From: Octopus vulgaris
Taxonomy: Eukaryota
Direction of reading: 5' to 3'
NCBI GenBank assembly: GCA_951406725.2
Contig: OX597828.1
Span: 8,370,001-8,434,000 of the forward strand
Length of the DNA stretch: 64,000 bases
Part shown: piece by piece, positions 19,057 through 63,268 of the stretch
Layout of the letters: the number at the start of each line of letters is the position of its first letter
Numbering within the stretch: the first letter of the stretch is position 1
Program-made: the position numbers and the translations under genes
The notes under the pieces: model-generated
Seen by the model: the letters and a program-made list of their open reading frames with translations, nothing else
What the model was told of the DNA's origin: nothing
Databases searched by the model: none

Positions 19057-19224
19057 TGATAGATCGTTAGCCACTACATACATTTTTCTTGTTTTTTCTG
19101 TGTCCCTTTCTGTAGAAGAGCGTAGGCTCGAAACGTAAAAGACTTTTTCTATTCCTGAGCGTTATAATATGTTTGTTTTGTACACCACCTGTCTTCGTCT
19201 TTTGTTTTTCTCGTAAACTATCCC
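19057..19224 (+). mobile_element. HHR-bearing short insertion in (TA)n (retrozyme or solo PLE terminal repeat, family 1)
   Basis: 168 bp island between two TA runs. Contains an HHR-like motif and the TTCCTGAGCG motif shared with the 38496, 41803 and 52317 copies. Confidence 0.7.
19106..19141 (+). ncRNA. Minimal type I hammerhead ribozyme motif (variant core)
   Basis: cttt-CTGTAGA-A-GAGC(gtag)GCTC-GAAA-CG-TA-aaag. Stem I cttt/aaag, stem II GAGC/GCTC, palindromic ACGT stem III. A6 is replaced by U and there is an extra A after A9. Confidence 0.65.
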
Positions 19225-19518
19225 TATATATATATATATATATATATATATATATATATATATATATATATATATATATATACATACATGCATACATACA
19301 CATATTTTCCTGTACAAATGAATTAGTAGCTTGGACGAGACAATGCGTATTGACAGTATGTTGCATAAGTGCAAACTAGTACCAAAGCATACTGTGGAAA
19401 ACCAAAGACACTAGGTTTTAAATTTTGCAGAATATTGTGTATGGTTAGGATTCCTGGTTTTCACCCAGGTAGTGAGGGCTTGATTCAGCATGGGAATACG
19501 TTTTTTTAGGTGCCCTCT

Positions 19519-19897
19519 TGGCTGTGTGGTCAGAAGCTTGCTTTCCAGGTTCAGTTCCACTGCGTGGTGTCTTCGGTGAGCGTCCTGTACAATAGCATCG
19601 GACCGACCAAAGCCTTGTAAGTGGATTTGGTAGACGGAAACTGGAAGAAGACCGTCGTATTTATGTATATATATATATGTGTGTATGAGTTTCTGTGTAT
19701 CTTCGTCTCCCACCATCACTTGACAGCCGATGTTGGTGTGTTTACATCCTCATAACTTTGAGTTTCGGCGGGAAAGATTGATACTATAAGTACGAGGTTA
19801 CGAAGAATAAGTCATGGTGTCGATTTCTTCGACTAAATACCCATTAAGGCGGTTCTCCACCATGGCCGCAGTCAGATGGCTGAGACACGTAAAAGAA
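19519..19897 (+). mobile_element. SINE family A copy (tRNA-derived, internal microsatellite)
   Basis: TGGCTGTGTGGT A box, GGTTCAGTTCCACTGCGTGG B box, GTGGATTTGGTAGACGGAAACTG core, CATGGCCGCAGTCAGATGGCTGAGAC tail. Confidence 0.88.
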
Positions 19898-20347
19898 TGT
19901 TTCCATCTTTACCCGAGGAAAATTATTTGTATCATTATCCTTACAGATGTTATGCATTTTTAGCGTATATTGTAGCAGCACGCAAATCATTATCTAGAAT
20001 ATCAAGTTGGATGTTCTTTTTGTTGGACAAAGCAACAGTATTGTAGCATCAATTCATACAGGACCAAATTTAAGTAGCATTCTCTTAATTTCCTTCACGG
20101 GAAACCAAAGAAACGCTGGAGTAATTTAAAATTGATGAAGACTGAAATGGATGTACTTTCTCATGTACAGAATGTGGACATGGATTTGAAGAAGTGTTTT
20201 GTAATCCATAGCCATGTAGCAATATTTATCGATACCCTGTCTTTTTCATCTATTACCACACAACATATCCGCCTCACTGTAGTATTAGGGGACACTAGAA
20301 TAGAGGAAATATCTAACATCCAAAAATATTTACAGTATGACGTAAGG

Positions 20348-20757
20348 TACTCTTTTACTTGTTTCAGTCATTTGCTGGAGCACCGTCTTTAGTCGAGTGA
20401 ACAAATCGACCCCAGGACTCATTCTTTGTAAGCCTAGTACTTATTCTATCGGTCTCTTTTGCCGAACCGCTAAGTTACGGGGACGTAAACATACCAGCAT
20501 CGGTTGTCAAGCGATGTTGGGGTACAAACACACACACAAATACATACATACATAAATATATACAAACACACACACACACACATATATATATATATATATG
20601 ATGGGCTTCTTTCAGTCTTCGTCTACCAAATCCACTCACAAGGATTTGGTCGGCCCGTGGCTATAGTGGAAGACACTTGCCCAAGGTGCCACGCAGTGGG
20701 ACTGAACCCGGAACCATGTGGTTCATAAGCAAGCTACTTACAACACAGCCACTCCTA
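20348..20757 (-). mobile_element. SINE family A copy
   Basis: Reverse complement aligns end to end with 53193-53602. Confidence 0.92.
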
Positions 20758-22129
20758 CACCTACGAGAATAATAGCATTCGAATCTTCTGGTAGATAGAT
20801 GTTGTAGATTAGTTGCTGCCAATTTGTTGAGGCAGTTGCTTATATCAAACGGAAAAGGAGTTGCTACATATTTGGTCCAAGAAACAGACCATATGCTGGC
20901 AGCATTAAAAAGAAAAAAAAAGCTACCCATAACTGGAGAGAGGAGAGAAACTTTCGGAAGATTCTTCAAACATTGCGATTATTTATCGATAGTTCATGAA
21001 AACGGCCTAAGTATAATTATGTCCTTGATATACATAGTAATACAAACACACTCACGCATATACACAATAAATGCTCTCACCAACTCGCACACAATACACA
21101 GAAGCATGGATAGGTAAAATGTGCCCGCTATTGAATAATATAACTAATCGTATTTATCTCTGTGCGAGAGCGTGTCCGTATGTGGACTTGTTTTTCCTTT
21201 GTGAGTGTGTCTATATATGCGCGAATGAATGAATGTAAACAAAAATATTTTAGACGAAAACCATGGTGCAAGCAAATTAAACAATGAAACGAAGAAAGCC
21301 TGGAAACATAGAAAATAAAGCAAGAAGGCAAAAACAATGACACGTACAGCCAACCAAACATTCGAAAACTGAAATCGAACACATAACAGAAGAACAAAAA
21401 CAATAATAATAAAAATAATAAAAGCCGAAATTCATAAAAAGCAACATATATAAGAATAGAATGACAAAGAGAATGGAAGAGAAAAGGGGAGATGGAAAAA
21501 GAGGTGAGAGGGAAAGGAAAAAGAGAGAGAAAGAAAAACGTTGTAATTTTTGATTTAGAATTGGATTCTTCACAGACAAAACTTATTATCTAAGTGAGAG
21601 GAAGACGAAGAAACAAACATCATCTAATCCCCCTCGCCACAACACAGTCAGACATCCATGTCTATATATTCAAAGACTCATGCAAATTCATTAAAAATAA
21701 ATAAAATATCAATGAATACACAAATCGATAACAAAGACTAGTAAATGGAGAAAAAGAACAAACAAAAAATGAAATACAATAAAAAAAAGAAAGAAAATAC
21801 ACAAGGAAGCAGGAAAAACAAACAGACAAATATAGATACACAAAAGCAACTAAAGCATGTCAAAGGTTAAGCATTTAGGGAGCATTTATTTACAAGTACG
21901 AGAAACTCGGTGAGAACGATTTAACCTTTGACCTTACTGTTTGTTGAAGCGCATGCGTGTATAACAGAGATTCAGTAGTGGCGCTTTTTTTATGTGTATC
22001 TGCGTAGGTGCATGTAAATGTGCACGTGCATACATATATTTATAATCACGCAAATATATATTTATGCTATGCACATATCGAATTATATATTGGTGCATCT
22101 GCACACGCAAGCACACACAGACATATATG

Positions 22130-61352: not shown

Positions 61353-61359
61353 GCTTTGA

Positions 61360-61578
61360 TGCTACTACTGCTGCTGCTGCTGCTGCTGCTGCTGACTGAT
61401 GATGACGATGATGATGATGATGACGACGATGATGATGATGGTGATGGTTATGATGATGATGATGATGATAACAGTAGAAGTAGTAAACGTCTTAGTAGTA
61501 GTAGTAGAATTGGTGGTGGTGGTGGCGGTAATAGTAGCGGGAGCCGCAGCAGTACCAGTAGTAGTAGTAGTAGTAGTA
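61360..61578. repeat. Compound (CTG)n(GAT)n(GTA)n(GGT)n trinucleotide repeats
   Basis: Direct reading. Confidence 0.9.
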
Positions 61579-62429
61579 AATGTATCAAGTTATATATTAC
61601 ACACACACATCGTTACCGACGTAAAGTACCTTCAATTATTCCAGTCATTGCTGAACCTCACACCGTAACACTATCCAGCTCATTGCTGCCGTTACTTATA
61701 TGAATGCATCCAAGTATTCATAGTCTTAATGTCTAAGAAATATATTCCTGGACAGGAATCACTTACATGGAATCTAAACGAACTCAGCATTACCATTAAA
61801 TTTAGTCAGTAACAATGTCTGGCCACTACTATCGATTACACATCCACAGTATGGCTATTTCAGATTAATTGAGCCAATCCGCTGAGAGATAAGTACCATT
61901 TCGAGAGAACGGTACTGCAGTTTCCTAGACAAACCACAAGCAGTTCTCACTTCGGCCATTCAGTCAATTATCTCATTTCGCCAGTTAAAGGTCTCTCATC
62001 AATGTGCAAAACTTTATTCATAAAATATCTATAAAAGCTTTAGATACACTATCACTATACAGTTTTCAACTGAAACCTAGTGCATGATAGATTCCTTTGT
62101 TAAAGATATTTAGCTTTTAAGATTACTTCTAATCTAATCATGTTTCCTTTTATTTATTTATTTTTCACTTCAGTACTGGATGTTTTGTTCATTCTGTAAA
62201 ATAGAGAGAAAAAAAGAAAAAAATCCCCCAGAACTCATGAGATTTCATTTTACGAAACAGAGAAAGTAAATACGTTGCTTACTGCAGCAGACACATATGT
62301 TTTAGTGTCTGAAAGTTCTGATATGTATACATTCCAGATGGAAATCTCGTACGCACACACACGCACACACACATCTTTGCCAGGTGTGTTTGTGAACACA
62401 CATATATATACTTTTATTCATTTATTTGT

Positions 62430-62612
62430 TTTATTCTTTTATTTGATTGCGGCCATGCTAGAGTACCGCCTTTCGTCGAAAAAATAGACCTCAGGACTTA
62501 CTCTTTGTAAGCTTAGTTTTTACTTTATTGTACGGTTTTGCCGAACCGCTAAATTACGGGTACGTAAACACACCAACATCGGTTGTCAAGCGCTGGTGTG
62601 GAGACAAACAAA
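62430..62612 (-). mobile_element. SINE family A 3' half
   Basis: TGCGGCCATGCTAGAGTACCGCC..TTTGCCGAACCGCTAAATTACGGG..CATCGGTTGTCAAGC. Confidence 0.85.
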
Positions 62613-62888
62613 CACACACACACACACACACAAACACACAGACACACAAACACACACACACATATATATATATACCATGGTCTCCTTATAGTACATCATT
62701 AGCATCGTCATCATCATCATCAACCACAGTGACTATATTATAGCTCGTATATATATATATATATATATATATATATATATACATATACATATATATATGA
62801 ATATATATATTTATATATATGAATATATATATATTTATGTATATGCATATATACATATATATATACATACCTACATATGTATGTATAT

Positions 62889-63268
62889 ATACATGCATTT
62901 ATGGGTACAGGCCATACAAACCGTTGAACACAACGAGAAACGAAAACATAAAACCCAAAAACATAGAAGCGAACTTTTTCGAACAACGAAAGAAACAAAC
63001 AGAGAAACAGGACATACAACATAAAGAATATTCCCCTTCTTCAGTTGTCCTGTTTCATCAAAACCACTTTCGAAAGCAAGGACAATACGCAACTTCGTTG
63101 AAACAATCCTTCCCGCAAACCAAATTAAATAAATTTGGGGATCTTTTGCGGAGGAGGAAAGTGATAACAAGAACAGGACAGTGAGAACAAAACAGTAAGA
63201 ACAAACGCTGAGGGTTGTTAAGTCAAGACGATAAAAACATTATTATGAACGGTAGGAAGACGAGCTTA
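62889..63268 (-). mobile_element. (TA)n-embedded insertion of about 380 bp with a hammerhead-like half core
   Basis: Flanked by TA runs; T-rich 3' end on the minus strand; an 11 bp stem encloses CTGAAGA. Confidence 0.5.

Follow-up and report, generated by a model that had tools for sequence, protein, structure and literature searches.

Published work already describes hammerhead ribozymes in Penelope-like elements (PLEs) by the thousands, their cleavage as dimers, the targeting of (TA)n and other microsatellites by PLEs, and retrozymes as PLE derivatives. Retrozymes of the non-LTR kind (LTR, long terminal repeat) in particular have been proposed to be non-autonomous derivatives of PLEs, a link drawn from co-occurrence and from homology to PLE pseudo-LTRs (pLTRs) (PMC7229834; bioRxiv 10.64898/2026.07.22.740005). 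The protein of an anole PLE nicks both strands of AT-rich DNA, starts reverse transcription at two internal sites and assists the hammerhead, which is dispensable for insertion in vitro; the two-start-site 'tail' signature is termed unique to PLEs (PMC11167929). How retrozymes move in animals and what the PLE hammerhead is for are called open questions (bioRxiv 10.64898/2026.07.22.740005; PMC8557442; PMC11167929). Among cephalopods, 235 Rfam hammerheads are given for the giant squid (PMC6962438), and a repeat annotation of octopus describes 31 recently active PLE families, ribozymes being unmentioned in the parts of that paper used here (PMC13282606). Our comparisons are with parts of these papers, of PMC4209133 and of PMC6765202. 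Here we analyze a 64,000-nucleotide stretch of the Octopus vulgaris genome (contig OX597828.1, positions 8,370,001–8,434,000; hereafter the window), in which a first-pass annotation had marked nine hammerhead-like sites with paired stems and read them as a population of non-coding ribozyme elements.

The window has a GC content of 34% and ~100 (TA)n tracts, in an assembly of 2.8 Gb and 227 contigs. All nine sites belong to hammerhead families, of which we counted seven (A–G) where at least six had been proposed. The literal CTGAnGA core is present at only four sites (24711, 35999 on the reverse strand, 36216 and 45638), and only 35999(-) and 36216(+) are canonical and fully paired, the others being decayed, truncated or variant. 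We put a probability of about 0.85 on the reading that these motifs are traces of a PLE system inserting at (TA)n, in which A and C are the 3' ends of coding PLEs, B and E likely are as well, and D, F and G are protein-free repeats likely copied by PLEs. The system is real and of an ordinary kind, with three additions that are new to our literature searches: its scale, its mass-amplified non-canonical cores, and a retrozyme with a PLE insertion signature.

Families A and C are the ends of young PLEs

Two families in the window are 3' pLTRs of young, autonomous Neptune-type PLEs. Their features in the window are:

19058–19224, forward strand: family A, the 3' end (pLTR) of a 5'-truncated PLE (PLE A) between (TA)n tracts, with an A6U hammerhead at 19106–19141
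42285–44390, reverse strand: PLE C, 5'-truncated and Neptune-type by its linker, with an open reading frame (ORF) remnant, a 3' untranslated region (UTR) and a variant hammerhead at 42426–42394
43662–44390, reverse strand: last 242 aa of the protein of PLE C, with a CxxxxCxxC linker and GIY-YIG domain
44435–45009, forward strand: inverted 3' arm of PLE C, with a variant hammerhead at 44834–44866 (U3-A8) and, ahead of (TA)n, an additional 3' tail

Copies of family A have ragged 5' ends and a 3' end fixed at (TA)n, with TATA or ATAT within 14 nt in 28 of 30 copies against a background of 17%, as the first-pass annotation had proposed for the junctions. Upstream, longer copies run into a C/T-rich UTR and then a GIY-YIG ORF. 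We scored 150 of 18,676 candidates and retrieved 12 long-frame copies, whose open frames span 1021–1214 aa and whose median identity across the reverse transcriptase–endonuclease part is 99.7%. A CTGTTGA hammerhead terminates all 12, and the same hammerhead lies in an upstream pLTR ~4.5 kb apart in nine of them (a diverged upstream copy is present in one more). Because the long copies show both features, the commonest motif ends a PLE and does so with a non-canonical core; the core at 19110, CTG-TA-GA, carries the A6U change that is true of the whole family. Canonical CTGATGA is present in a sister element of A (locus L356). PLE ORF remnants upstream of three other copies of A (L014, L016 and L030) were rejected as parts of this element, since (TA)n intervenes and marks them as other insertions.

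For PLE C, we scored 150 of 20,073 candidates. Many were 98% identical and held 775-aa frames with both reverse transcriptase (RT) and GIY-YIG domains, and eight copies were at least 99.8% identical. The hammerhead lies 0.92–0.97 kb past the stop codon in 8/8 of these, with a second upstream copy in 2/8. In the window, the motifs at 42426(-) and 44834(+) are the sense and inverted arms of one insertion (95% identity over 551 nt), and the extra tail is on the inverted arm only. They are U3-G8 and U3-A8 variants, respectively, with a stem II base unpaired. The C core is the known U3-A8 variant, and in young intact copies GCAA replaces GAAA (A13C; 262 GCAA versus 123 GAAA matches, controls 0). 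At two loci (L103 and L108), 1.6 kb 5' of the frame of PLE C, the interval from the upstream pLTR to the RT frame holds an A/C-rich stretch that looks coding; it could be an ORF of its own or an N-terminus split by an intron.

The two PLE proteins are 28% identical across 744 aa. The linker motif before the endonuclease, CSRPRCRTC in PLE A and CGDGRCGTC in PLE C, points to the Neptune type for both. Like the Neptune-clade PLEs in the published account, these elements have an RT followed by a C-terminal GIY-YIG domain, a Cx2-5CxxC linker, partial tandems, a 5'-truncated inverted arm, a tail and microsatellite targets; unlike them, they have 3' UTRs that are long and rich in C/T and CA, and their cores are non-canonical (PMC8557442). 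We found pLTR tandems in both PLEs, and the inverted arm with tail was demonstrated for C. The proposed association of PLE-type type I hammerheads with (TA)n and GIY-YIG PLEs was right.

Non-canonical cores in A and C

Hammerhead positions (A6, A13, U3-A8 and so on) are given in the usual numbering. An exact pattern for families A and B matched 25,203 times in the genome, 5,237 times with A6 and 19,966 times without, and among the first 100 matches listed, 79 had U6, 18 had A6 and three had C6. The A and C cores would have drifted (A6U, A13C) during continued multiplication, and, because copies multiplied despite drifted cores, cleavage in both families is probably slow or dispensable. Since both autonomous families that we studied have non-canonical cores, many motifs are probably weak or dead.

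A tentative alternative is that A6U marks a natural hammerhead variant that is still active, with dimers or the PLE protein rescuing it, rather than a decaying relic. It would account for the fixation of A6U in both pLTRs of intact young PLEs and for the pattern of change among 93 copies, in which N7, N17 and loop 2 differ between subfamilies but the remaining core is kept, as are stem I pairs one to three (96–98% paired). At the fourth pair of stem I, A has C-G, and B has G-C or G-U. A natural A6C variant retains low activity, although the same account has A6 changes lowering activity (PMC3088659, in part), and the anole hammerhead is protein-assisted, yet its mutants did not prevent PLE insertion in vitro (PMC11167929). 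Two observations from the octopus copies also count against an active variant: A13C was independently fixed in the youngest copies of C, and the intact upstream hammerhead was read through in 9/12 long copies of PLE A.

Families B and E are probable PLE ends

24660–24838, forward strand: family E, 3' terminus of a longer element that bears a GIY-YIG-like ORF upstream, core 24711–24783
41794–42011, forward strand: family B copy, a probable PLE 3' stub with a decayed hammerhead at 41878–41905
52317–52443, forward strand: family B copy truncated by (TA)n inside the core

The core bases at 41878 have decayed to CTAACAA...AAAA. At one of two extended B loci (L355), a related ORF ends ~1.8 kb upstream, which suggests that family B is probably also a PLE 3' end. 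In family E, stem I of the copy at 24711 is broken by two substitutions and the same stem is intact family-wide; the stems are intact in most of 20 aligned copies, and 3' ends occur with or without a tail. TATA or ATAT lies within 14 nt of the 3' junction in 15/20 copies, against the same background of 17%. Long copies have a 178-aa frame upstream that looks by eye like a GIY-YIG C-terminus, and we regard E as a probable PLE end.

Family D is a tandem retrozyme with a PLE insertion signature

35271–36164, reverse strand: family D, a non-coding tandem retrozyme with a 485-bp unit, here ~1.8 units long and lying in (TA)n
36007–35901 and 35522–35430, reverse strand: family D hammerheads, the first intact, the second a damaged twin without stem III

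Scoring 40 candidates for D gave 226 matches. Many are 99–100% identical and form 485-bp arrays of up to 14 units across many chromosomes. Each unit holds one type I hammerhead and is non-coding, its longest stop-free frame being 66 aa. The hammerhead is predicted to fold into the three-way junction, its stem I being 8 bp long, and in a diverged subfamily G-C pairs of stems I and II are swapped for A-U. D is a true non-coding tandem retrozyme, like the published non-LTR retrozymes in that its tandem units are non-coding and carry a single type I hammerhead apiece (PMC7229834; bioRxiv 10.64898/2026.07.22.740005).

To describe the insertions, we mapped 68 D arms, taken from the listed arrays together with L060 and the copy in the window. 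Left out were L211 (a locus counted already), pieces internal to L207, a fragment at the edge of L218 and ends cut at locus edges; the arms come from the best-scoring young arrays and are a biased sample. By reading, (TA)n adjoins 67 of the 68. The 3' ends fall almost wholly at unit positions 121–134 or 230–241, and 27 of 29 inverted inserts have one arm at each of these sites, which lie ~106 nt apart. D insertions thus carry the two-start-site tail signature of PLEs, and because this signature is present, D likely borrows PLE machinery. The signature within its own insertions sets D apart from the retrozymes in the published accounts, as do a long branched stem II, a palindromic stem III of 12 nt and the failure to detect pLTR homology (PMC7229834; bioRxiv 10.64898/2026.07.22.740005). 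The two internal RT start sites that define a tail and the AT-rich targets recall the anole Poseidon PLE, although there the tail is 30–40 nt and the element is coding, whereas the D offset is ~106 nt and its RNA non-coding (PMC11167929).

The 5' ends of the 68 arms are also unevenly placed: 18 lie within 40 nt past the predicted cleavage site, and the 40 nt preceding it hold three (p=7e-6 by a binomial test and 6.5e-4 by a scan test). This pile-up is consistent with RT running off the cleaved 5' end of a partly cut multimer. Contigs from three sequencing runs of unrecorded kind covered about one D unit, some free of mismatches; they show neither expression nor a circle and were not used.

The damaged D motif reported beside the intact one was borne out by a copy at 35514(-) without stem III. 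This twin (35274–35520, reverse strand) has many small deletions beside (TA)43 although the family is ~100% identical, and may reflect either a misassembly or careless copying.

Families F and G

36188–36352, forward strand: family F, a young short non-coding element between (TA)n tracts whose 5' end is fixed and whose hammerhead, at 36212–36254, is canonical
45147–45850, forward strand: family G, ~1.3 units of an older ~530-bp tandem repeat that begins at the predicted cleavage site, hammerhead 45632–45703

Family F is young, with many 100% matches. Its 5' end lies 24–39 nt ahead of the core in 40 of 41 arms; the query started at that end, yet no copy reached further. Among these arms, 35 have an inverted partner, 18 a tail and 20 TA directly at the end. 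F mostly inserts as a head-to-head dimer (as across L383–L411), the transcript of which would be a ~160-bp perfect hairpin, and such dimers are a possible source of double-stranded RNA. Copies of G are 80–85% identical with a tandem unit of ~530 bp, and at 45638 the 6-bp stem I is intact and stem III is odd-length and non-palindromic. No partner ORF was found for F or G, nor, by blastn, for D. The tandem non-coding layout is absent from the families other than D and G: A and C are PLE ends, and B, E and F are single or inverted.

A PLE-based model and its alternatives

In the model that we favor, a GIY-YIG endonuclease would nick both strands of AT-rich DNA and RT would start at two internal RNA sites, both steps being transferred from the anole PLE (PMC11167929). 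The expected outcome is copies whose 3' end is fixed at (TA)n and whose 5' truncation is ragged, joined to a second, inverted arm, with a tail on just one of the two arms; genomic copies of C, D and F show this outcome, and E ends with or without a tail. D arrays would be transcribed into multimers that partly self-cleave as dimers through paired palindromic stems III, and the multimeric RNA would be copied in trans by a PLE protein. F and G would likewise be copied in trans by PLE proteins. Because the PLE hammerhead lies ~100–150 nt from the 3' end, most truncated stubs retain it, and the motif therefore reaches high copy number; the majority of motifs are likely to be 5'-truncated PLE stubs and not retrozymes.

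Several observations weigh against this model. The GIY-YIG domain of PLE A scores under the Pfam cut-off (16.9 versus 22.6 bits), the link of B to PLEs depends on one of the two extended loci, and a Pfam search of the 178-aa frame of E gave no GIY-YIG match. For D, no sequence link to any PLE was detected among 191 sequences. The pile-up of D 5' ends also fits RT stalling at stem I or a ligation scar; six of the 18 ends lie at positions 7–10, the foot of stem I, where a stall would suffice without cleavage. Only two of 20 G copies (the window copy and L290) start near the predicted cut.

A bolder version of the model appears doubtful to us: that D is now multiplying as a circular-RNA retrozyme, its insertions preserving traces of hammerhead cleavage in vivo as well as of PLE two-site priming, and that its helper PLEs depend on a new, protein-dependent A6U hammerhead present in ~20,000 copies and unseen by CUGANGA searches. 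Quite improbable is the proposal of the first-pass annotation that all families are non-coding retrozymes, moving as circular RNA by means of the PLE at 43662. That proposal fits D and G, which are tandem retrozymes, and the non-coding nature of D and of the short element F, and D arrays as long as ours are expected of rolling-circle copying. However, A and C physically form the ends of autonomous coding PLEs, as B and E probably do, and the ORF at 43662 belongs to family C alone, with no tie to D. The pile-up of D 5' ends suits a linear template or a stall more than free rolling on a circle, and multimeric RNA can be obtained from tandem loci without circles. Still less probable is that D arrays are satellite DNA spread by DNA-level recombination with an incidental hammerhead. 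The arrays are indeed head-to-tail with near-identical units, but they are short, number ~40 and are scattered over many chromosomes; every one is inverted at a point of its own, has two fixed 3' ends and is flanked by (TA)n.

Hammerhead motifs across the genome

Our type I descriptor combined a core of CUGANGA, UUGANAA or CUGUNGA with GAAA and UH, a stem I of at least 4 bp, a stem II of at least 3 bp and a palindromic stem III; the CUGUNGA (A6U) option was put in post hoc, once family A had been inspected. In a random sample of 60 stretches of 10 kb (600 kb), chosen blind across chromosomes, it found 17 matches within 10 stretches, compared to 0.15 in shuffled and 0 in reversed sequence. By core, 11 were canonical, three U3-A8 and three A6U, so that dropping the post hoc option lowers the count to 14 per 600 kb, a point against the scale claimed here. 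The rate of 28 per Mb extrapolates to ~79,000 motifs (bootstrap 95% CI 33,000–140,000), and we estimate that the genome holds tens of thousands, in agreement with the very large population that had been predicted. As a cross-check, the three A6U matches lead to an expectation of 14,000, and the exact pattern count is ~20,000. Downstream of 11 of the 17 matches, (TA)5 occurs within 250 nt, versus 19% in the background.

In the window itself, the descriptor gave three matches (19110, 35999(-) and 36216); across 100 block shuffles the mean was 0.05, and no shuffle gave more than two. With canonical cores only, 35999(-) and 36216(+) pass; 19110 requires A6U. The four exact patterns matched 25,203, 5,237, 123 and 262 times, each with 0 matches in its reversed control. 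The motifs are real and far above chance: although the core is short and a loose descriptor yielded two doubtful additional matches within D, shuffled, reversed and pattern controls at or near 0 refute a chance origin in AT- and microsatellite-rich DNA. The Rfam search that had been proposed alongside was negative, with 0 matches in the window at gathering thresholds; by E-value, the best 150 of 283 matches were mostly microsatellite-driven microRNA matches and included no hammerhead. Throughout the window, tracts of (TA)n, (TG)n and (CA)n give rise to spurious sub-threshold microRNA matches, mir-3149 and mir-297 among them.

A core of CUGANGA...GAAA...UH or its U3-A8 form is present in families B, D, E, F and G and in older copies of C. 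As a rule, stems I and II are paired and stem III is palindromic, with exceptions in the unpaired stem II base of C and the imperfect stem III of G; the shared palindromic stem III described earlier thus holds in most families and fails in G and in F (ACGATTGT, G-U pairs included). Unrelated families retain different yet paired stems, the stem catalogue across all collected loci comprises 36 classes, many in unrelated families, and compensatory base swaps were seen between subfamilies. Against this, the near-identity of the members of each family means that conservation among them is no evidence of selection. About 20 additional unrelated hammerhead families with a palindromic stem III were also seen (L032, L035, L060, L066, L342, L347 and others), several of them U3-A8.

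These motifs resemble published PLE pLTR hammerheads in their type I topology, the unpaired base after A9, G10.1-C11.1, the palindromic stem III, the U3-A8 variant, the pLTR location and the predominance of single motifs from truncated PLEs. They differ in number, ~2,000–9,000 per genome there and ~80,000 here with different descriptors, and the A6U core (~20,000 copies) and the A13C of a young family are absent from the account used here (PMC4209133). Our literature searches, which left out Repbase, Dfam and paper supplements, found no octopus or cephalopod retrozyme, and these elements are apparently undescribed there; the PLE families may already be catalogued in Repbase or Dfam. A search for a natural A6U hammerhead returned no listing that appears to describe one, judged on titles only for two A6U matches. 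The genome supplies a young, near-identical retrozyme with a PLE signature and at least two intact young PLE families, and its natural A6U and A13C cores lie beside canonical sister lineages, making trans-mobilization and ribozyme dispensability directly testable. Counts based on CUGANGA can overlook the largest hammerhead family of a genome.

Other features of the window

Core-like matches at 5214, 28209 and 28583 did not pass the descriptor and were rejected. The repeat at 62892–63267 (reverse strand) was also rejected as a hammerhead: none of 25 copies, which keep CTGAnGA, has a usable GAAA...UH in type I or II order. It is an old, T-rich and abundant repeat (3,840 candidates, 85–88% identity) that terminates in CCCA(TA)n and has a conserved CTGAnGA half core with GAAA upstream and no hammerhead fold. 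Broken reverse-transcriptase fragments at 36813–37196(+) and 55983–56840(+) match Pfam RVT_1 and look non-PLE, resembling long interspersed nuclear elements by eye. The frame at 57748–58107(-), for which a Pfam match is absent, resembles the C-terminus of a hAT-type transposase. A 173-bp tandem repeat at 32266–32615 is present in two copies and looks by eye like a short interspersed nuclear element.

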